Assembly: GCA_963705255.1 (NCBI GenBank)
Contig: OY970061.1
Coordinates: 1,376,001 to 1,440,000 of the forward strand
Source: an uncultured Methanoregulaceae archaeon
Lineage (GTDB): Archaea; Halobacteriota; Methanomicrobia; Methanomicrobiales; Methanospirillaceae
Length of the DNA: 64,000 nt
Direction of reading: 5' to 3'
Shown here: in pieces, positions 2,278 to 14,671 of the stretch
How the letters are laid out: each line of letters starts with the position of its first letter
Position numbering within the stretch: the stretch's first letter is position 1
Position numbers and translations under genes: made by a program
The notes under the pieces: generated by a model
The model's input: the letters and a program-made list of their open reading frames with translations, nothing else
Told to the model about the DNA's origin: nothing
The model's database searches: none

Positions 2278-2856
2278 ATGAACGTTGTTGCATTCAACGG
2301 CAGTGCCCGTAATGACGGCAATACCGCCATTCTTGTCAATGCGGTATTTGCGGAACTGAAAAAAGAAGGTATCAGGACCGAGCTTGTCCAGCTGGCAGGA
2401 ACGGAGATCCGGGGTTGTAATGCCTGCGGCACGTGCTTCGCGAACCAGGACAAGCGGTGCGGAATAAAAGATGATATCCTCAACGACTGTATCGAAAAGA
2501 TGCTGGATGCCGACGGGATCATCCTCGCCTCGCCTGTGTATTTTGCTGATGTGTCCACCGGGATGAAGGCACTCATCGACCGGGCCGGCCTTGTGGCAAA
2601 GGCAAACCAGGACATGTTCCGGCGCAAGGTCGGGGCATCGGTGGTTGCTGTCCGCCGTGCCGGGGCCATCCACGCGTTTGACACGATGAACCATTTCTTC
2701 TTCATCAGCCAGATGGTAGTCCCCGGCTCATGGTACTGGAATATCGGCCTTGGGGGACTTGGCCCTGAGGATGTAAAAGGCGATGAGGAAGGGTTGATGA
2801 CCATGCGGACGCTTGGCGCCAATATGGCGTGGCTGCTGAAGAAGATCAACGACTAA
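2278..2856 (+). CDS. Iron-sulfur flavoprotein / NADPH-dependent FMN reductase family
   Basis: NGSAR..GNT, CNACGTC...C, ASPVYF, RRAGA motifs. Confidence 0.85.
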   Translation: MNVVAFNGSARNDGNTAILVNAVFAELKKEGIRTELVQLAGTEIRGCNACGTCFANQDKRCGIKDDILNDCIEKMLDADGIILASPVYFADVSTGMKALIDRAGLVAKANQDMFRRKVGASVVAVRRAGAIHAFDTMNHFFFISQMVVPGSWYWNIGLGGLGPEDVKGDEEGLMTMRTLGANMAWLLKKIND

Positions 2857-2964
2857 TTTTTTTCAGATAGCCACGGTCAGGTCATCGGTTGCCACGATGA
2901 GCCCGGTACTGAGCTCAATGTTCTCATCATGGCAGTTGCCCCGGCACCGGCGCCTGTCCCTGAT

Positions 2965-3672
2965 TTACCACGCCCTGCCGTACGTGTTGTGGTACGTAAA
3001 CGATGCACGGTCCCTGCGCACCCTCAGGTAGCCCGGTTGCGCGGCGGGGTACCCCAGCCTGACGGCAAACGATACCGCCATATTCTCCGGTACCTCCAAG
3101 ATCTTCTTTACATCCTTCTGGACGGGACCGCTGAATGCGCTCATGATCTGGAACCCGATACCCAGCTCCTGGGCCGTGAGCCACATGTTCTCCATCAGGC
3201 AGCCGAGGCTCAGGATCCCGAGCACGTCTCCCTCCGATGCCGGCGCCCGCTTCCGGGTATCGTACACCACGACGAGGAGGGCCGGGCTCCCCTTGATCGT
3301 CTCGTCAAGGGTCCCCGGGGTCCTGTCCTTCATCGCGGCTTCGAGCTGTGCCTTGTCCCGCCATGCCGGCGGGAACCCCAGCCCCAGAATCCCGACCTTC
3401 TTCTTCAGCAACTCCTCCTCCGACACCGAGAGCTGCTCGAAATTTTCCCGGATAAAGTCCGGTGACGGGTAGGTCGGTATCTTCCCGAGCCGGTCCAGGA
3501 CTTTTCTGTCATCGACAACGATGATCTCGAAGTTCTGCATGTTGTGGGCAGTCGGCGCCCACCGGCCCGCTTCCAGGATCTTTTTTATATCGCGTTCAGG
3601 CACCTGCCTGTGCGGATCAAAGAATGCCCGGGTCGAATGCCTCTCCTGTATAATCTTCATCAGATCGTCCAT
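2965..3672 (-). CDS. Nitroreductase family protein
   Basis: ERHSTRAF, AGRWAPTAHNMQ, ENMWLTAQELGIG, LGYP. Confidence 0.85.
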   Translation of the reverse strand: MDDLMKIIQERHSTRAFFDPHRQVPERDIKKILEAGRWAPTAHNMQNFEIIVVDDRKVLDRLGKIPTYPSPDFIRENFEQLSVSEEELLKKKVGILGLGFPPAWRDKAQLEAAMKDRTPGTLDETIKGSPALLVVVYDTRKRAPASEGDVLGILSLGCLMENMWLTAQELGIGFQIMSAFSGPVQKDVKKILEVPENMAVSFAVRLGYPAAQPGYLRVRRDRASFTYHNTYGRAW

Positions 3673-3790
3673 GGTTCCTGCCTCTTGCAGCAGCTGAACT
3701 GCACGTTTGCATTGAACGATATATACCTATAAAATTTACTCAGGTACAGGTTCCGATGCGTTGCCGGTGCCGGGCGATTTTAAAGAATAG

Positions 3791-3817
3791 TGGCAGGGGG
3801 ATCGCCCCCCCCTGCCA
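3791..3817. terminator. GC-rich hairpin downstream of small ORF
   Basis: TGGCAGGGGG ... CCCCCTGCCA 10-bp inverted repeat. Confidence 0.4.
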
Positions 3818-3827
3818 TCGTGTGGTT

Positions 3828-3971
3828 TTACGGTTTCGGGCTCTGCCCTCCGTCTGATTCCATGTGATCGAGGACCCTGTCCCACATGACGAGGAGTCCC
3901 GGGATGATCACGTAGGCGAGCAGTCCGGCTCCTGAGAACCCGGCGGTGATCAACACTTCGTTGTCGACCAT
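3828..3971 (-). CDS. Small 47-aa single-TM membrane protein
   Basis: Manual translation MVDNEVLITAGFSGAGLLAYVIIPGLLVMWDRVLDHMESDGGQSPKP*; GGTGA RBS between upstream TAA and ATG. Confidence 0.6.
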   Translation of the reverse strand: MVDNEVLITAGFSGAGLLAYVIIPGLLVMWDRVLDHMESDGGQSPKP

Positions 3972-3986
3972 GTCAGTCACCACGGA

Positions 3987-4490
3987 TTACGAGAGCGCCG
4001 GGATGCTGTCGGCCCAGGTCTCGACCTTGCTGCGGATCGCTTCATCGCTGTACAAAGTGAGAGTCGCCTGCGAACGGCTGAAGTTGACGTAGTAGATCTC
4101 GCCGTTTGCATCGTGGCACCTCAGCGTCACCGCGAAGGTCTCGTGGGCGGCGTCGCGGACCGCGGTCCCCCCAAGGGAGGTTGCGATCGCCGTGTCAGCC
4201 TCGATATGGTTTGCCACGGCCGTGAAGGCTGCGACCGACTCTGCCCGGATGCTGATGAGCCCGACGGTGTTTGCATCAGAGTCCTGGTAGAGGACCCGTG
4301 CGGTGTAACCCTGCCGGCCGCGTTCAACCGGGGGGTGGTTCACTCCTTGTGCGTTGTAGGAAACGCACTGGAAGGGGTTGTTCGTTATGACGCCCTGGAC
4401 AATAGTCTCGAAGGCAGTCACGTCTGGGAGCGGTGTCGCGAACTTTCGGACAGCGCTCTTCGTGGTAGTTCCTAATACGAAATCTGCCAT
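3987..4490 (-). CDS. Conserved hypothetical protein (MADFV... type, recalled from Methanomicrobiales)
   Basis: 167-aa ORF with host-like codon usage and GGAGA upstream. Confidence 0.75.
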   Translation of the reverse strand: MADFVLGTTTKSAVRKFATPLPDVTAFETIVQGVITNNPFQCVSYNAQGVNHPPVERGRQGYTARVLYQDSDANTVGLISIRAESVAAFTAVANHIEADTAIATSLGGTAVRDAAHETFAVTLRCHDANGEIYYVNFSRSQATLTLYSDEAIRSKVETWADSIPALS

Positions 4491-4508
4491 GTTTTTTTCT
4501 CTCCGAAG

Positions 4509-4642
4509 AGGTTCAGTATGAACCTTGAGGATGAGAAGAACTCATCAGAGTTCTTCGAATTCCGAAGAATTCCGTATAACCTCGATGGGGTAAAGGGAGG
4601 CAACCTGCCTTCCCTTAACTTCTGTGGGTTCGTCCTGAACCT
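4509..4642. mobile_element. MITE/REP-like element, locus A of hairpin repeat family
   Basis: Imperfect 16-bp terminal inverted repeats AGGTTCAGTATGAACC (4509-4524) vs reverse complement of 4627-4642 AGGTTCAGGACGAACC (14/16); core hairpin GAAGAACTC-ATCA-GAGTTCTTC 4535-4556. Confidence 0.55.
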
Positions 4643-4813
4643 AGGTTTTTCTTGCGTCTCGGGGCGCCCTTTGACATACCATCATTGGTTTTTGGAATAT
4701 ATCGGGTAATTTGTGGGGGAGCAATCCGGGGGCATACAAGGCCGTAATTGCCGTTTCGGGCAGTTTGGAGTGGATCGACATTGAACGGGGCCCGAAATAA
4801 AAAAAAGAGTGGA

Positions 4814-5373
4814 TTATTTCAGGGATGCCGGAAAGTCGAGGTCATACCTCAGACCTCCCGGGTAGACCAGGTAATATCTCCAGCCGCAGGCCGGGGAGTA
4901 GACCCAGATCATGATCCGGTCAAGGATCTTCTTTGCCAGCTCGCGGAGGCTGTCCACTTTACCGGTATAGAGCTCGCGCAGTTTTGCCGCGTTCGGCACC
5001 GGCAGGCGCGAGCGGAGGGCGAGCACCAGCACCGAGCCGGCTTTGTTGAGCCCGATGAGATTGATCGGGATTGAGGGTTCGCTCAGGCGGACCGGAAGAT
5101 AGCCGTAACGTACCTGAGAAGATCCATCGCCTCATAAACGAGCGGATTGCTCCGCGTCCGGCCCGGACGGGCTACTGTAGCCGTCACATCGATGGGAGAA
5201 TGGACGATGACCTCGGTCCCGGTCCTCTCCGGATCCGGTACGGCGTGTTTCCGGCATTTCACCTGATTTGCAGATTTCTGTCCGCAAGTCTTTCCTCTGG
5301 CGGGAGATTTTCCTCCCTTCCCCGCCCGGGAGATACTATGTGGCCTCCCGGTCGTTTTCTCTTTTGTATTCAT
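4814..5373 (-). CDS. Hypothetical protein with Hjc/PD-(D/E)XK-like fold, catalytic residues apparently degenerate; frameshift near 5110
   Basis: ORF 5083..5373 (..VYEAMDLLR) joins the frame of ORF 4814..5032, which is open back to ~5131 (YGYLPVRLSEPSIPINLIGLNKAGSVLVLALRSR...). Confidence 0.5.
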
Positions 5374-6250: not shown

Positions 6251-7618
6251 ATGACGCAACTTCCTGAAAAACCACCGGACTGGACGAAACACCTCACAGG
6301 GGGACTGGTAAACTATTTGATCAATGCGGAGTTCGCAAAATCTGTGGCGGAATATAATCGTCGTTACCTCTTCTGGGACGAACTGAAGTACCGGCTGCCA
6401 GATGAAGAGCAGCGGAGGACGGCGTGGGCTGTCATGAAGTTTTACCGGTCGATGCGACAGGAGATTCCTTATTCCTCACTCAGACTCACCTACTCGATCA
6501 TTCCTGAGATAGTAAAAAGCCTCCACGCGATCGACAGCTACCTCACCGGGAACATCCGCATCCACAACAAGACCATCCGGCTCGAACAGTCCTACATCAT
6601 CAACTCGTTCATGGAGGAAGCGATCGCATCAAGCATTCTCGAAGGTGCAGCAACGACACGGAAAGCTGCAAAGGAGATGCTCCGGAAAGGCAGGAAGCCG
6701 AAGAACAGTTCCGAGCAGATGGTTGTCAACAACTACGAGGCTATGAACTTTATCCTTGAACACAAGGACGACCCGCTCACTCCTGATCTCATCCTTGAGA
6801 TCCACCGGCTGGTAACAAAAGGAACCATCGATGAAGACTCGGTCGGGCAGTTCCGGACCAACAATGATATCGTCGTCGCAAATCCAGCCACCGGCGTGGT
6901 CTTTCATACGCCACCTGATTATCGAGAGATAGAACACTCCGTAGCTGAACTCTGCGATTTTACCAACCGCGTTGAACAGGATTCCGGAAAGGGAGATGCG
7001 GATTACATTCACCCGGTCATCATGGGGATTATCCTGCACTTCCTCATCGGGTATATCCACCCGTTCAATGACGGGAACGGGAGGACTGCCCGCAACCTCT
7101 TCTACTGGTACGTCCTCTCACGCGGCTACTGGCTGTTTGAGTACATGCCCATCTCGCGGATCATTCTCCGGTCGAAAAAGAAGTATTCGCTTGCATACCT
7201 CTTTACCGAATACGATGAGATGGATCTCACCTATTTTATCCTTTATAACCTGTCCTGCGTTGATGAAGCCCGGAGAGATCTCCTGAAATACCTGGAGGGG
7301 AAGCAGACCGAACAGAATGCAACAAAAGCTATCATTAAAAAGATCCGGGATATCAACCAGCGTGAAGGGGATATTCTCCGGCACATGATGGAGCACAGTG
7401 ACGAGTATTTCACAATCCGGGAGATCATGCAGATGTATACTACCGTATATGAAACTGCCCGGACCGATCTCCTTCATCTTGCAGATCTCGGATACCTGAA
7501 CAAGGAAAAGCGGGGACGGGAATTCATCTTCATCTTCAATGAAAGCAGCGAACTGTGGAAACACAATGCAAAGAAAGATGCTACCGTCAAACCTCATCCA
7601 CGTCAGGAGGAATCCTGA
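6251..7618 (+). CDS. Fic family protein (class II, autoinhibited) with C-terminal winged helix
   Basis: HPFNDGNGRTAR canonical Fic motif; SSILEG inhibitory (S/T)xxxE(G/N); C-terminal TARTDLLHLADLGYL wHTH. Confidence 0.92.
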   Translation: MTQLPEKPPDWTKHLTGGLVNYLINAEFAKSVAEYNRRYLFWDELKYRLPDEEQRRTAWAVMKFYRSMRQEIPYSSLRLTYSIIPEIVKSLHAIDSYLTGNIRIHNKTIRLEQSYIINSFMEEAIASSILEGAATTRKAAKEMLRKGRKPKNSSEQMVVNNYEAMNFILEHKDDPLTPDLILEIHRLVTKGTIDEDSVGQFRTNNDIVVANPATGVVFHTPPDYREIEHSVAELCDFTNRVEQDSGKGDADYIHPVIMGIILHFLIGYIHPFNDGNGRTARNLFYWYVLSRGYWLFEYMPISRIILRSKKKYSLAYLFTEYDEMDLTYFILYNLSCVDEARRDLLKYLEGKQTEQNATKAIIKKIRDINQREGDILRHMMEHSDEYFTIREIMQMYTTVYETARTDLLHLADLGYLNKEKRGREFIFIFNESSELWKHNAKKDATVKPHPRQEES

Positions 7619-7837
7619 CCACATTCAGTCGTTCCCGCAGCCGGGTTTCCCGGGTTGGGGAGTCGTGAGGGTTTCATCACCGGATTTCACATAAGGTTTG
7701 TCAGGCCGAATTTGGGAGAGGGGGGGATGGGGGCGAGGGGTAGGAATGTTGCCAAGTATATTTCCGATGGAGTATTACAAAATTTTGAATTAGTGGAAGG
7801 TGGGTAAGTATATAACAGAAAAGAAGATTGTGGGAAA

Positions 7838-8775
7838 TTAGCTTAGCCTGTTAGGAAGACGATGATGTCCTACCTTGTCATGCGATTGTAGACTTTTTAA
7901 AATGGTATTCATTTCATCCATTTCTTCTTTTGAAAAATTATCACTGTCCATTACTTTATTCCCGTAATTGTTTAGTTTTTCAAATAATCCTAGTTTTTTA
8001 TCTGGAAAATTCCGAGAGGATTGTCCGGTAACCCACTTAAACTGCGAATCCGAAAATTGTTTGAAAGGCCCATTCATACATGCTGAAACAAGACGGTCTC
8101 TCTTAGTAGGATCTTTCGATGCTAATATGATATTCATGATTCTCGTTTCTGATAGGCTGAAAATTGGATCATCAGGATTCAAACTTTTTTTCCAGTCATA
8201 AAAAAATACAGCATAATCAAATATGCGTTTACCATAACCATATTGCCCTCTGCCCCATTGTTCAAGAGCTTGCGTAATTTTTTCGAGGGAGACATCACGA
8301 TTATCATCTAAAAATTGTCGAATGCGTTTTCCCGATTCCCAAAATTCGGATGTTGTTGTTATTTTTTGCTTTCTGATCTCCCCACATATGTTTTTATTGT
8401 ATCTTTGAACTTCAGCTTTTGAAAAAGCTCGGATTTTTTCTTCAAGTTTGCTTTTTTCTTGCATCAATGAAGTACTAATACTTTTTAATCCAGATTGTGT
8501 TTTATTGCTAGTTGCTGTATCCCCAGCAATGTACTTTTTAGTACCATTATTAAAAGTTAAAATCAGCCCTTTCGGTCTTGCAATTATTCTGACTTTTAAG
8601 CCTACATTTTTTTTAACGTCGGCCCAGTTGATCTCATTATTCGTATTTACATTGATTGGTTTTCCTGGAGGCCCCCTGCAAGAACTTCTCTAGCCCAAGC
8701 TTGTGCTTCATCTGCTGTCCATCGTAACCCTCTTTCTGGGATAGTTATAACGATATTTGCAGGATTATATTCCAT
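7838..8775 (-). CDS. Hypothetical ~312-aa protein with DUF1016(YhcG)-N-terminal-like domain; frameshift in G-run near 8672
   Basis: ATG 8775 (MEYNPANIVITIPERGLRW...VLAG) joins the frame of ORF 7838..8467, which is open upstream to the G-run; FWESGKRI..YGYGKRIFDYAVFFY..LSETRI..D...RD pattern. Confidence 0.65.
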
Positions 8776-8779
8776 GATA

Positions 8780-10831
8780 TCATTCCCGAGATGCAGCTCG
8801 TAATTTTTCACAGGAACGTAAAAATTTTTTTCTTAAAACGTCTACATTCTGAAAATGCTGTAATACTTGGTCTTTATCGAATTTTTCCTGAGGACTATTC
8901 TCCATGAAATCCTTGAGTCGTCGTTCTGCCATAACTTCAGCAATCATTTCATATAAAATCGAATCAGCGACTCGAGGTTGAGTTTCGTATACGAGACCGA
9001 TCCGAGCCCCTTTTGTATTAAACCAAATATCTCCATCAGACCAAATAGGCATAATCTCATTCTGAATTGGATCGAGCGAGTCATCTGTTATCGGTGATAA
9101 ATCCTGGATTGTACCTTTCCGTCCATCATCACCTTTATTTCCTCCTTTTGGAGGACTTCTGGAAATTATTTCTGGTTCTATTTCAATCCATATCGAATGT
9201 AACGCTCGCTCAAGTTCAATTGACTCAGTTGAAGAATCGGATCCCTTTTGTCTTGGCGGTTGATTTTGTAATATACACCGGATGTAATTTTTTCCTATTC
9301 CAAAATCATCAATGATCGGGATGTCTAATGTATAAACAATTCTTCCTTTTTTATCTGCAACAGCAGGGTCGATAATTGGAATATCATGATATTCCCATGC
9401 ATTCAATCGAGATAATCCTTTATCAAGAGCTTCTATTGTTAATTGTAGATATTTTTGATATTCCTTTGTGGGATTTAGAATGATAATTTCAATGTGGGCC
9501 TTATCCTCATAGTTGTAAAATTCCTTATCGAGTTTAATATCTGATATGAACGGATGTTCTGGAGATTCTTTTTTATTTCTTTTTCTCGTGATTTCATCAG
9601 TACCTGACCACGGATTAAAATCTGGTACTTCTGCAAATGCTCTTTGCAAAACGTCTAAATTTATTTGAGCTCGCTTTCTATCTTTTTCGGTCAAGCGAGG
9701 TTTAAATTTTCTTTTTTCATAAGGTATAATAAAATCTTCAACATTTTGCTGAAGCAAGTCCTGAACTTTTTTATAGTGGGGATGAGGAGTAAATCCACGG
9801 TGCCCTGGTTTTTCACATGCGCATAAGAAGCGTCCTTCGAAGTTACAATCGTAACTTGCCCAACCATAAATTCTATCCTGTAATTCTGTACTAATTTTTC
9901 GACCGAAATCTGTGTCACGTTCAATAACCTGTGTACCCTTTTTTATTAGCGCAATACCCCTTAACTCCCGGGGTAGTGGTTCTTCTGCTAAAAAAAACGC
10001 CACATTAGTTAATTCCCCAATTTTTTTCTTATTGTAGGTTACTGGGATTTTTGAGATTTTTTTCACTATTGGTTTTCCACTATCTGTTGCTGGAACAGGG
10101 AAGTGAGGCATTCCAATTTTTTGAAGGTCTTTATCAATATATCCAAATCTGATTTGAACACCTTTTTTTATTGCAGCACACCAAGTTTTTGAAATATCTT
10201 GAATGATTCTTTCGGCATCCAATAATTCATCATGAACCGGGTCAATCACACCTCGGATGATAATTTCTGATCCCTCAGGTTCATCAGATTTCATGAGATA
10301 GTCTTCAGATAAAACCCAAGTCCAATCATTTCCGGATCTCGTCCAATGAGACGCCATTGTATCTGTTTTATGGAAGGATTTGGGAGAGGCAATTTTTGTT
10401 CGTACGATTGTTTCAGTTCCAGCTACAATAAGTAAGGATTTACCCTGCCCTCTTGATCCAAGAGAATTTAATGGCTTACCTAACCCGCCCAAATAGTGAA
10501 AATTGCCCCAACTGCAGTGATCATCATGGCAATCTTCGGCACCTGAAATCCTACCCCAAAAACATTTTTTACAATGGGGCATCCCGGTAGTACCATAATC
10601 TCTTATAGACAGGATACGATTTTTGGGATCATATCTGATTATAATTTTTACATCCTTATAATCAGATTTTTTTGCGTCAATCGAATTTTGAATCGACTCT
10701 TGAAAAATACCTTTCGCATGTGACTCATAATCATCTTTATATGATTCCATTAACCGATGTGTATTTGCACTTAATTTATGACTCTCTTTAGCGTAGTCGG
10801 GAATTGTTGTTTTTAATGATTCTGTGGACAT
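8780..10831 (-). CDS. GHKL (HSP90/MutL/MORC-like) ATPase with long C-terminal region
   Basis: QESIQNSIDA N-box, RDYGTTGM G1, LGSRGQGKS G2; 683 aa; AT-rich. Confidence 0.85.
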   Translation of the reverse strand: MSTESLKTTIPDYAKESHKLSANTHRLMESYKDDYESHAKGIFQESIQNSIDAKKSDYKDVKIIIRYDPKNRILSIRDYGTTGMPHCKKCFWGRISGAEDCHDDHCSWGNFHYLGGLGKPLNSLGSRGQGKSLLIVAGTETIVRTKIASPKSFHKTDTMASHWTRSGNDWTWVLSEDYLMKSDEPEGSEIIIRGVIDPVHDELLDAERIIQDISKTWCAAIKKGVQIRFGYIDKDLQKIGMPHFPVPATDSGKPIVKKISKIPVTYNKKKIGELTNVAFFLAEEPLPRELRGIALIKKGTQVIERDTDFGRKISTELQDRIYGWASYDCNFEGRFLCACEKPGHRGFTPHPHYKKVQDLLQQNVEDFIIPYEKRKFKPRLTEKDRKRAQINLDVLQRAFAEVPDFNPWSGTDEITRKRNKKESPEHPFISDIKLDKEFYNYEDKAHIEIIILNPTKEYQKYLQLTIEALDKGLSRLNAWEYHDIPIIDPAVADKKGRIVYTLDIPIIDDFGIGKNYIRCILQNQPPRQKGSDSSTESIELERALHSIWIEIEPEIISRSPPKGGNKGDDGRKGTIQDLSPITDDSLDPIQNEIMPIWSDGDIWFNTKGARIGLVYETQPRVADSILYEMIAEVMAERRLKDFMENSPQEKFDKDQVLQHFQNVDVLRKKFLRSCEKLRAASRE

Positions 10832-10837
10832 AAAAAA

Positions 10838-11101
10838 TTACGGAAGGGAGATTTCTTTCTCTACCTTTCCTTGGAATGCGTTTTCAACAGTTCTAACAGA
10901 TTCCTTCAGAGTTCGGAGAATGTATTTTACTTGGGCATCAGTATACTCATATCTGTTCTTGTCCGCTAATGGAGCAATAAGTTCGATGGTGTGTACTGCT
11001 TTCTCTAATCGGGCTTCCCCAAGTTTCCGAAATTTCTGTGCTTTGGGGCTTTCAACCTGAGTTTTTTCTTCCATATTTTGTTCCTCAAAACGATTATACA
11101 C
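10838..11101 (-). CDS. Small helical protein of a family often seen in RM/defence loci
   Basis: KFRKLGEARLEKAVHTIELIAPLADKNRYEYTDAQV..L pattern; probable start at 11074 (MEEK). Confidence 0.7.
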   Translation of the reverse strand: MYNRFEEQNMEEKTQVESPKAQKFRKLGEARLEKAVHTIELIAPLADKNRYEYTDAQVKYILRTLKESVRTVENAFQGKVEKEISLP

Positions 11102-11194
11102 ATACTAGAATCAATTGAATGATCCAGTATTTGAGCTCATAAATTATTTATATTTTTCTTAAAAATGAAAATTTTTCAATGCAATTATTGATTC

Positions 11195-12184
11195 TTATAT
11201 TGCTTCTACAGAAGCTACAGGCATTATAGTATTTAATGTAGAATCTTGAAAAAAATATTTTTTGGGGACCCTTTCTATTGCAAAACGAATCCTTTTAGAG
11301 GCGATATTGTAAGCTTTCTCATTCAGCTCAATGCCGACAGATTTACGACAGAGCTCCAAGGCACCTAGCATTGTGGTTCCGCTCCCTGCATGAGGATCGA
11401 GAACAAGATCATTTTGTTTTGATGACGCTAGAATAATCCATCGTATTAAATCCAGCGGTTTTTGAGTTGGATATTCAGAATTACTTATTATGGGGGGAAT
11501 TTCAAGGATACTTTTTGGATATCTTTTTCCAACATTCTTCATGGAATATGGTTCTTTTTTGAAAGAATCCTGAGTCGCGGGATGATTCTTTTTCCTATTA
11601 CGAGTATATGGTTTGCCGTTTGTCATGACTTGTTTTGTGTAAAATTTTGTATTATCGATTCGAGCTCCTTTTTTACAGAAAACGAATATATTTTCATGAA
11701 TCGGTAGCGGTTTGAAATTGGAAGACCAGGGTATATTATTGCGGTTCCAGATTATCTCAAATCTGAAATCAAAATATTTTCTGAAACTATTATAGACATC
11801 AATCAATGAGGGTTGCTTTCCAAAAATATAGACAAGGCCATTATCATTTAACACGTTATGATAAAGATCAGCCAAAACATCCCAATCTGGAGCTTCGTCC
11901 CATGGAAGCTTAGTAATACCATAGGGAGGATCGTCAATGATAAGATCCACAGAACTTGGAGATAATGTTTTAAGATGTTCCTCGCAATAGTCTTGCACTA
12001 ATGTTGGCTGATAAAATGAAGGAGGATCACGCCCAAATGATGTAATATGTCTAAATTTATTCTTATCACCTTGTCGATAATATTCGACCAAGTAATAGTA
12101 ATTTCCATTTACCCCTTTTGATTTTTTTATGTAATAACGTGACAGTCTGTGTTCATCGACTTGATCTAAGGAAAGAGGAGACAT
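11195..12184 (-). CDS. Beta-class N6-adenine/N4-cytosine DNA methyltransferase with N-terminal extension
   Basis: DDPPY motif IV before YPTQKP and LDPHAGSGTT motif I, GIEL. Confidence 0.92.
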   Translation of the reverse strand: MSPLSLDQVDEHRLSRYYIKKSKGVNGNYYYLVEYYRQGDKNKFRHITSFGRDPPSFYQPTLVQDYCEEHLKTLSPSSVDLIIDDPPYGITKLPWDEAPDWDVLADLYHNVLNDNGLVYIFGKQPSLIDVYNSFRKYFDFRFEIIWNRNNIPWSSNFKPLPIHENIFVFCKKGARIDNTKFYTKQVMTNGKPYTRNRKKNHPATQDSFKKEPYSMKNVGKRYPKSILEIPPIISNSEYPTQKPLDLIRWIILASSKQNDLVLDPHAGSGTTMLGALELCRKSVGIELNEKAYNIASKRIRFAIERVPKKYFFQDSTLNTIMPVASVEAI

Positions 12185-12390
12185 CAGTGATCAAGGCCTC
12201 CCATTTTTTCTTTGGATTTTGACTCATTTGGCTCAGTTTTTCCTCCGACCCGCTTGAATTCAAAAACCATTCTTCTTATTGCATCTCTAGCTGCTTCTGC
12301 TTCATTGAGATAATAGGTGCCAACAATTTTTTCGAATTCTTTTGATAGTTCGTCAGGTAGATCGGTATGACATTTCTTTGTTTTTGCCAC
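12184..12390 (-). CDS. Ribbon-helix-helix (CopG-like) controller protein
   Basis: CHTDLPDELSKEFEKIV..YYLNEAEAARDAIRRMV; stop overlaps MTase start (TGATG). Confidence 0.7.
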   Translation of the reverse strand: MAKTKKCHTDLPDELSKEFEKIVGTYYLNEAEAARDAIRRMVFEFKRVGGKTEPNESKSKEKMGGLDH

Positions 12391-12394
12391 AAAG

Positions 12395-12441
12395 TTACTC
12401 TAGAGTAATTATGTAAATACTTTGCGATTACTTTGTAGTAA
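12395..12441. promoter_or_regulatory. Tandem palindromic operators flanking a TATA-like box of the RHH-MTase operon
   Basis: TTACT-CTAG-AGTAA 12395-12408 and TTACT-TTGT-AGTAA 12428-12441, 33 bp apart; TATTTACATA on minus strand between them. Confidence 0.6.
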
Positions 12442-12680
12442 CTAATGAATATCTTTTTATCTTCATTCTTAATCCGTGGTCTCATCCATTTCCTATCCTA
12501 TGTGAAATTATTCCACACAAGTCTCATCGCGAAGAATGGGGCCAGAAGATTACCCGAAACGCTCCCACAAACATTTCCATTCATGAGCAGGTTATACGAC
12601 GGTATCGTGCTTCAGAAAGATGCCGCACGAGAACATTGACCCCTAGGTAACCCAAACATCCGCGAACTATCCCCACCCCT

Positions 12681-12999
12681 TCCCAAAACCTTCCGGCCCA
12701 ACTCAGTACCTCCCAAAAATAATTTTGCCTCAGGTCCGATCGCGCCAAAATTTTTTTTGGCGCAACTCAGTACGAGCCAGAAAAATATCTGGGACCCCCT
12801 CCCAAAAATGACCGTTCACGCCTAAACACCAGTTGTCTGACACGGCCCGGTCGCGCCAAAAAAATATTTGTCCCAACTCAGATCGGCCCAAAAAAATTTT
12901 TGGCGCAACTCAGTACGAGCCAAAAAAATATTTGCCTCGCACTGGATCGAGCCGGAAAAATATCCGGCGCGATCGGGACCGGGCCGGAAAATCTTCCGG
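12681..12999. repeat. Array of nine 16-bp quasi-palindromic boxes with exact 32-bp period, in two blocks
   Basis: Boxes start at 12681 (degenerate), 12713, 12745, 12777, then 12856, 12888, 12920, 12952, 12984; e.g. CCAAAATTTTTTTTGG, CCAGAAAAATATCTGG, CCGGAAAAATATCCGG; 16-bp linker CGCAACTCAGTACGAG occurs twice identically. Confidence 0.9.
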
Positions 13000-13111
13000 A
13001 CCGCACAACCCAATCAACTGACCAACCCCTCTCTTCCGGTCCGCAACGGGAAAAAGAACTCCATGCAAGATCCGCAAGGATATTCACCACAGGTAATAAA
13101 ATACGTGCAGG

Positions 13112-13480
13112 ATGCTGAAGACCAGCTACTTCGCGAGGAGTGCCAAAGAGCCCGGTGCGGTCTCGATAGCCCGCTTCCCGCCGCGATGGTATTCCGGCAG
13201 GAGATACTTCAGGCTCGCCCCGACACCTGAGATGCTGAAACTCGAGGACTGGGAAGAATACCAGAGAAGGTACCGGGAGGAGATCCTCTCGGGCCTCGAT
13301 CCCGATGAGATCCTCCGGGACCTGGACGTTGCGGGGGCAGGTCATGATGTCATCCTGCTCTGCTTCGAGAAGGAACGGACGCACTGCCACCGCGGGCTGG
13401 TCGCAGAATGGTTTTCTGAAACAATAGGGCTCGAAGTCCCCGAAGTCGGATCCCCGTCCACGATCCAGGCGACACTCTAG
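13112..13480 (+). CDS. DUF488 family protein
   Basis: TSYFA..VSIAR..P..LAPT..L, YREEIL, LLCFEK....CHR.LVAEW. Confidence 0.8.
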   Translation: MLKTSYFARSAKEPGAVSIARFPPRWYSGRRYFRLAPTPEMLKLEDWEEYQRRYREEILSGLDPDEILRDLDVAGAGHDVILLCFEKERTHCHRGLVAEWFSETIGLEVPEVGSPSTIQATL

Positions 13481-13687
13481 AACCTGTGGTTGGCAGTCGC
13501 GAGCCTAGCGAGGGGGATACGGGACCGGCAGGAACGGGGAATGACAGCCAACCTGCCGGAAAACCAACCTATATATTTCCGTCCCGCAATTAACAATTGT
13601 GAATTATTCTCCGGCAGAAGCCCCATCCCCGAAAAGAGCCAACGGACACCGGAGACAGAATCCCTGAATTCCTGAGAGAGGTTGCCT

Positions 13688-14671
13688 ATGAAAATCCACG
13701 ACAATATCACCAAAACCATCGGCAATACCCCGCTCGTCCGGCTGAACCGGGTGACAAAAGGCCTGGACGCAACCGTGCTTGCCAAAGTCGAGTCCTTCAA
13801 CCCGATGGGCAGCGTGAAGGACCGGATCGGGGTTGCCATGATCGAGGCTGCCGAGACCGCAGACCTGATAACGCCGGATACCATCATCCTCGAGCCGACA
13901 AGCGGCAATACCGGTATCGCCCTTGCCATGGTGGCCGCTGCCCGGGGTACAGGATCACGCTGGTCATGCCGGAGACGATGAGCATCGAGCGGCGCAAGCT
14001 CCTCAAAGCCTTCGGCGCCGAGCTCATCCTCACGCCCGGCAAAGAGGGGATGAAGGGAGCGATAGGAAAGGCCGAGGCCCTCCTAGCAGAGAACCCCCGG
14101 TATTTCTACATCCCCCAGCAGTTCCGGAACCCGGCAAATCCCGCCATCCACCGGAAGACAACGGCAGAGGAGATCTGGCGGGACACGGACGGGAAGGTGG
14201 ATGCCGTTGTCTCCGGTGTGGGGACCGGCGGGACAATCACGGGAATAGCCGAAGTGATCAAGCCCCGCAGGCCCTCGTTCAGGGCCATCGCCGTAGAACC
14301 CGATGCATCCCCCGTCCTCTCGGGAGGCCAGCCCGGCCCGCACAAGATCCAGGGCATCGGTGCGGGTTTTGTTCCCGACGTGCTCAGGAAGGATCTCCTG
14401 GACGAGGTGATCCGCGTGACATACGAGGATGCTGTTGCCGCCGCACGGAAGATGGCCAGAGAGGAGGGCATCCTCATCGGCATCTCCGGCGGGGCAGCGA
14501 TATGGGCAGCGCTCCAGTCTTGCGGCACGGAAGGAGTACGCAGGCAAGACCATCGTGGTCATCCTGCCGGATACCGGGGAGCGGTACCTGAGTACGGAAC
14601 TCTTCGAAGTCCGGGATGTTAACCAGGACCCCGGAGAGGAGAAGGATCGTCAGTATCCTCCGGCCGGGTAA
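13688..14671 (+). CDS. cysK: Cysteine synthase A (frameshifts near 13945 and 14520)
   Basis: [48 protein letters not shown] spread over three frames. Confidence 0.92.

Follow-up and report, generated by a model that had tools for sequence, protein, structure and literature searches.

The 64,000-nucleotide stretch of contig OY970061.1 from an uncultured Methanoregulaceae archaeon (the window) carries a cassette of five co-directional genes on its minus strand, at positions 7838–12441. Compared by motif and operon description, this cassette is classified here as a variant, so far undescribed and lacking a nuclease, of the paraMORC restriction-modification (RM)-like operons. The predicted products are, in transcription order, a probable ribbon-helix-helix (RHH) regulator, a DNA methyltransferase (MTase), a small protein of 78 residues (S), a GHKL ATPase (B), and a partner protein with a helix-turn-helix (HTH) domain (gene 5, C). 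The upstream gene of many related loci is called A. An earlier note on this DNA had taken all five genes for one defence system. Only B and C form the conserved core, and the five-gene order is specific to one clade. We see about an even chance that the cassette is an RM-like defence, in which the MTase would mark self DNA and the B–C pair would seize unmarked incoming DNA.

The conserved ATPase–partner pair

The neighbourhoods of 23 loci with relatives of B were compared. C lies directly after B in all 13 loci that have DNA past B (C was called by profile in 12, several of which are members of that profile, and by reading in L022). C has an MTase as its next gene in each of the nine loci with a complete C and downstream DNA, which correspond to roughly six independent lineages. 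For comparison, the host genome has at least about seven MTase-like loci in all. The synteny that the earlier note had proposed to look for is therefore present for B–C and for the MTase adjoining C. The distance between C and the MTase is −23 to +91 bp in eight loci, and the two genes overlap in L022; seven pairs are convergent and two co-directional.

The class of this MTase varies. It is Eco57I/TaqI-like in L005, L007, L008, L017 and L002, N6_N4 in L011, L012 and L022, and D12 in L014. The MTase of L002 is a fragment without a Pfam match, 46% identical to that of L008. The ATPase of L002 is frameshifted (2815–4835), and L008 has a partial tandem duplicate of C (13090–13686) between C and the MTase. 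At the distant locus L049, B is accompanied by a 219-residue partner (C-like by eye; profile E 0.36), an HhH-GPD glycosylase and a C5 MTase.

Upstream of B, gene A is found in 12 of the 23 loci and an MTase together with S in two (L003, L009), while nine have neither or no DNA there. The five genes do not hold together as a system, since only B and C are constant, the MTase differs in class and position, and those 12 loci have a different upstream gene. In a tree of 15 sequences (L002 and short fragments excluded), the window clade nests inside loci that combine gene A with a gamma-class MTase downstream (support 0.98–1.00). This clade has lost gene A and carries an unrelated beta-class MTase upstream instead; its gene order is therefore derived. 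By this tree, the window clade is predicted to have lost the usual MTase and regained another upstream.

No nuclease or helicase is conserved among the neighbours from the 23 loci, and none is seen in the window; the earlier statement that no such effector is recognisable stands. The neighbours are mostly of defence type (Fic, DndB, SIR2, GmrSD, Mrr).

The ATPase

The GHKL motifs of B are complete (E45-N49-D52, D78xG80xxG83, G125xR127G128xG130 and G187), and E45, N49 and D78 are kept in all 24 aligned members. By these four intact motifs B is a GHKL ATPase, as the earlier note had called it, with ATP hydrolysis predicted. B itself has no match in Pfam, NCBIfam, PHROG or PADLOC. Among the aligned members, 12 of 24 have weak matches to HATPase_c (PF02518) and 11 of 24 to PF13589, and the Atlas groups B with PF13589 clusters (0.97), the look-alike clusters being mostly bacterial. 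There are 28 close database proteins, one of them B itself, and 244 clusters at E≤0.001, with 26 at E≤1e-30.

The AlphaFold model of B (pLDDT 81.5, pTM 0.60) contains a GHKL domain with a four-cysteine insert, an alpha+beta domain, an all-beta domain (residues 428–549), and a small C-terminal alpha/beta domain that ends in long helices. On inspection of the model, the alpha+beta domain (256–401) has an S5-like order of strands and helices. The motif E340xxxH344 in this S5-like region is kept without exception in the 24 close members; in a wider set of 144 sequences, His344 is conserved at 1.00 and the glutamate at 0.90. The four cysteines of the insert (C87, C90, C101 and C106) are invariant in the close subfamily, absent from L049, and probably form a zinc site. 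Arrestin matches to residues 416–462 (E 0.013–1) are no more than a hint of a beta-sandwich.

The MORC motif GhXhhpXXRhl is absent from B by pattern search. No nuclease family matches B by sequence, and no conserved nuclease-type acidic cluster is seen in its C-terminal part. Sequence searches of the PDB with B, A and C returned nothing usable.

The partner protein and its interrupted reading frame

The earlier note had read gene 5 as a 209-residue open reading frame (ORF) at 7838–8467. The gene instead starts at the ATG at 8775 and encodes 312 residues (7838–8775). The window has 938 nucleotides here where 939 are required; one base is short in the GGGGGCC run at 8670–8676, which splits C into ORFs of 54 and 209 residues. 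The database proteins P0039 (101-kb contig) and P0249 (10-kb contig), from two other assemblies, are identical intact copies of C. A third, P0248, is called with 208 residues, like the window, and the ATPase of its contig is also truncated. The nearby cysK-like gene (13682–14622) is split by a missing G at 13943, which is restored in short-read (Logan) contigs of two of four runs. The window assembly thus drops homopolymer bases, and the frame break in C is likely an assembly error.

In the AlphaFold model of C (pLDDT 87.5, pTM 0.80), an N-terminal alpha/beta domain is joined by a disordered linker to an all-helical HTH domain. Residues 142–234 align collinearly with DUF1016_N (hhalign E 2e-4, probability 46%; controls E 0.08 and 0.27), in a comparison that tried 16 DUF1016 proteins from the 23 loci. 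This remote similarity agrees with the DUF1016_N-like label that gene 5 had been given. In Pfam, C (P0039 copy) scores below the gathering threshold of DUF1016_N (PF17761) and has no match, and a genome search for this domain finds three other copies and not the cassette locus. As a lead only, the Atlas puts C in a DUF1016/ParB-HTH cluster (0.91). Foldseek finds nothing for C at E≤0.001. Among the weaker matches ParB (6sdk) is first and Noc (7ng0, probability 0.89, 108 columns) tenth, and SopB, P1 ParB and the DNA-binding domain of Noc recur. C has no match to a nuclease family or fold and no conserved nuclease-type acidic motif. C is thus likely to bind DNA through a ParB-type HTH and to have no nuclease.

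C diverges faster than B, their identities to the window (C/B) being 0.48/0.60, 0.43/0.54 and 0.22–0.26/0.29–0.31. The putative recognition helix of C varies between groups with different MTases, a pattern confounded by kinship.

Gene A and the small protein S

Gene A (about 338 residues) has an RHH-like start and a winged-helix-like end by eye, belongs to no family, and is represented by 50 database proteins. It has no copy elsewhere in the host genome, which is 89.5% complete. Nine of 227 other genomes of the family carry gene A, in eight cases directly before another GHKL-like ATPase, and in three of these eight loci the next gene is an MTase. Overall, gene A (for example L040:6677–7690; loci L040–L047) stands before three or more distinct GHKL subfamilies, and it could be a regulator or DNA-binding subunit that they share. 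A 775-residue GHKL family beside gene A was tried as kin of B and rejected (hhalign E 0.5, profile E 0.06–3.3); it is a separate subfamily. One clade has a Cys-rich small ORF (61–70 residues) between A and the ATPase (L017:1488–1679, L020:510–695, L024:450–635, L016:461–673).

S has no Pfam, NCBIfam or PHROG family, and its only PADLOC match is mad1 (E 0.027). It lies directly upstream of the GHKL ATPase in the window, L003 and L009. The sole S homolog among the family genomes (G283, 24% identical) precedes a 903-residue GHKL ATPase and a convergent N6_N4 MTase. A viral contig also encodes an S homolog (L029:7662–8216; 34% identity over 61 residues), with no GHKL neighbour.

From these arrangements, the predicted grammar of the loci is A or S, then a GHKL ATPase, then in some loci an HTH partner, accompanied by an MTase.

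Organization of the cassette

The features of the cassette are collected in Table 1. All five genes are on the minus strand, as first described. The tight coupling reported for most of them holds at the TGATG overlap of the RHH and MTase genes (at 12184) and at the gaps between S and B (6 bp) and B and C (4 bp), but not between the MTase and S, which are 120 bp apart. This A/T-rich gap may separate two transcription units. A scan for sigma-70 promoters did no better than chance, the sigma-70 model being poorly suited to archaea.

Table 1. Features of the cassette in the window (strand -, minus;., none)
Feature	Positions	Strand	Basis
Probable RHH regulator, 68 residues, GTG start	12184..12390	-	Weak CdrS/NikR matches; overlaps MTase start
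Beta-class amino (N6A/N4C) DNA MTase, 329 residues	11195..12184	-	PF01555, PADLOC MTase_II, PDB matches
A/T-rich 120-bp gap, possible internal promoter for S-B-C	11075..11194	-	TATA-like stretch by eye
S, 78 residues, no named family	10838..11074	-	Same position in L003, L009
B, paraMORC2-like GHKL ATPase, 683 residues	8780..10831	-	ATP motifs, ExxxH, model
C, HTH partner, 312 residues, one base short in window	7838..8775	-	Intact in P0039, P0249; hhalign; model
Low-GC island enclosing the cassette	7800..12500	.	GC profile; 5 congeners lack it upstream of the cysK-like gene

The RHH assignment rests on CdrS/NikR likeness in NCBIfam; the earlier note had stated it more firmly than these weak matches (E 0.009–0.013) allow, with none in Pfam and none in PADLOC at E≤0.1. 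The related contigs start inside the MTase, short of the RHH gene.

The cassette has a single amino-MTase, as had been noted, matching PF01555 at E 9.6e-33 (about 1e-32). DPPY stands before DPHAGSG in its sequence, its PDB matches are CcrM, MboIIA and DpnA, and its PADLOC match is generic. The MTase at the equivalent position in L003 is 87% identical. An aromatic and basic N-terminal extension of about 55 residues (12005–12184) is kept in L003; the N-terminal 60 residues have no Pfam match, and the extension is possibly an extra DNA-binding module. Palindrome avoidance gave no site for the MTase, CTAG being the sole strong depletion.

The host genome is a 2.6-Mb single contig. The appearance of genes in relatives and the source name of one gene A homolog make the host a likely Methanoregula-like methanogen. 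The GC content of the cassette is 0.361 versus 0.546 genome-wide, among the lowest 0.85% of 5193 genome windows of 4.6 kb each, which bears out the AT-rich block seen by eye. Among five congeners compared, the common flank is on the cysK-like side only, which does not fix an exact insertion site. The island itself contains no integrase or replication gene and no tRNA.

A Fic-domain protein with a C-terminal winged HTH (6251–7618) lies downstream of C, convergent with the cassette, and Fic genes likewise flank L041, L043 and L044. On the other side is a DUF488-N3a protein (13112–13480). A degenerate 32-bp repeat array (12713–12998) resembles five or more other sites of the genome, two of which adjoin low-GC genes; a further copy is near the gene A–GHKL locus L041. 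The array perhaps marks a mobile hotspot. Farther away, there is a 167-residue ORF (3987–4490) without a Pfam family. The genome carries three partial paralogs of it, and homologs occur close to the gene A–GHKL loci L040, L041, L042 and L044.

Distribution

The ATPase is found in none of the 227 family genomes, which supports the horizontal acquisition suggested by the earlier note. A distant form occurs in one of 400 genomes of the phylum, and 400 genomes of the phylum of L002 have no B besides that of L002 itself. The named hosts of B matches are archaeal (Thermoplasmata, Bathyarchaeota, Haloarcula). Searches for B in viral contigs, plasmids and phages gave no match; no distant members were found in plasmids, and no gene A in viral contigs. 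Among sequencing runs, a freshwater sediment metagenome holds half of the sequence words and may be related to the source, and no RNA run was listed as holding them.

Proposed mechanism and alternatives

In an RM-like defence, the MTase would mark the host DNA and C would read the unmarked site through its HTH domain. B would dimerise on ATP as a clamp and loop or trap the DNA. Replication or transcription of the trapped DNA would then be blocked, or the DNA would be passed to a nuclease encoded elsewhere. S may assist or regulate the ATPase as one of its subunits, and the RHH protein may control MTase expression. We favour this mechanism because C always follows B and an MTase always follows C in the complete loci, set against the MTase-like loci genome-wide, and because the window clade regained an MTase after losing the usual one. 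Further reasons are the invariant ExxxH motif, the patchy distribution, and the placement of paraMORCs in RM operons in the available text of the 2008 survey (PMC2292703).

Several observations weigh against it. The killing step is missing, as the loci have no conserved nuclease or helicase and no nuclease-type acidic motif is seen. B–C is constant while the class of the MTase changes, which fits poorly with a fixed recognition site. Because MTases abound in defence islands, the genome baseline understates chance, and the nine loci represent only some six lineages. Finally, the MTase of the window is set 120 bp from S-B-C. A more specific proposal, which we put forward tentatively and well short of an even chance, is an immunity that is gated by methylation and needs no nuclease: a ParB-like HTH adaptor would load a MORC-like clamp, which would trap and silence unmethylated foreign DNA without cutting it. 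If true, such clamp immunity would be the prokaryotic equivalent of MORC silencing in eukaryotes, with interchangeable parts (A or S, several ATPase subfamilies, any MTase class).

The varying class, orientation and position of the MTase would also suit a module of B–C with S or A that acts in defence or conflict independently of methylation, such as by abortive infection or DNA sensing, the MTases being island cargo or backbone. The gap that sets off the RHH–MTase pair and the MTase-adjacent minority (3 of 8) of the gene A loci with other GHKL ATPases point the same way. We consider this unlikely, however, given the nine of nine adjacencies after C, often with overlapping ends, and the regain of an MTase in the window clade. 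The resemblance of C to ParB/Noc DNA-binding domains, the lack of a nuclease, and the integrases or recombinases near L002, L008 and L022 would fit a selfish maintenance module, in which the ParB-like protein and the ATPase clamp anchor, condense or silence the element and the MTase protects or regulates it. As the island lacks an integrase, a replication gene and a tRNA, no relative of B was found in viral contigs, plasmids or phages, and the neighbours are mostly of defence type, this has hardly more than an outside chance.

We give an outside chance to B–C being a guard or modification-dependent arm, which fires on methylated foreign DNA or on inhibition of the MTase rather than on unmethylated DNA. 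The tolerance of any MTase class fits such a guard, and eukaryotic MORCs act at methylated loci according to the abstract of one report (PMC4268658). On the other hand, no methyl-reader domain is recognised in B or C, and self-methylation beside a methyl-targeting arm requires an extra rule. Very improbable is a locus decayed in this strain, with a real frameshift in C and only an orphan MTase active. The window and one other assembly do give a C of 208–209 residues, and the short-read contigs leave the frameshift site uncovered, but two assemblies agree on an intact C, the break is in a homopolymer, and a nearby gene has the same type of error.

Comparison with known systems

PADLOC (2023 library) gives no match for B, C or the RHH protein at E≤0.1 and only a generic one for the MTase, so that the check proposed in the earlier note yields no named system. 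The literature search found no description of this gene combination; subscription papers and the supplement of Iyer, Abhiman and Aravind, which may list such operons, lie outside that search.

C matches YhcG/DUF1016 proteins collinearly over residues 142–234, under the Pfam cut-off. The C-terminal DUF1016 domain of YhcG is of the PD-(D/E)XK type. In comparison, C has no C-terminal nuclease-like DUF1016 domain and has a distinct N-terminal alpha/beta domain. The cassette resembles Type II RM systems in that an MTase adjoins the partner unit, often convergently, and a small regulator is coupled to the MTase; it differs in having no endonuclease, the partner being an ATPase with an HTH protein.

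As in the Tiamat and Tiamat-like systems, in the available part of a 2026 preprint (bioRxiv 10.64898/2026.09.30.754977), a GHL ATPase lies near adenine methyltransferases and RM-like action is proposed. For the prokaryotic MORC/paraMORC operons, the preprint still presents the mechanism as a proposal drawn from gene neighbours. B differs from the Tiamat ATPase described there in its length of 683 residues and in having no DUF3684 or NOV_C/PD-(D/E)xK nuclease match.

The closest likeness is to paraMORC2. In the available text of Iyer, Abhiman and Aravind 2008 (PMC2292703), MORC and paraMORC1–5 ATPases are predicted in RM-like operons, which agrees with what the earlier note had said of this class, and paraMORC2 is marked by a strongly conserved ExxxH within the C-terminal portion of the S5 domain. 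B shares with paraMORC2 the GHKL domain, the ATP motifs, ExxxH, the lack of a MORC motif, the sporadic spread and the methylase linkage, and perhaps, by the order of strands and helices in its model, the S5 domain. However, the cassette lacks the SFII helicase, Vsr, HNH or RE-fold nuclease of the paraMORC operons described in that text (PMC2292703), and B is filed as paraMORC2-like rather than as a member of those operons because this helicase and nuclease context fails. The MTases beside the close B family are amino MTases (adenine or N4C), whereas those near MORCs are mostly cytosine MTases in the same text (PMC2292703). Relative to the operons described there, the B family adds a constant HTH partner, the four-Cys insert (close subfamily) and archaeal named hosts. 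The cassette would be a minimal paraMORC-type case, in which the ATPase goes with a single HTH partner and a single MTase. For methanogens it is a further candidate defence system. It could test nuclease-less MORC-like defence and methyl gating, which has a bearing on how MORC silencing arose in eukaryotes.

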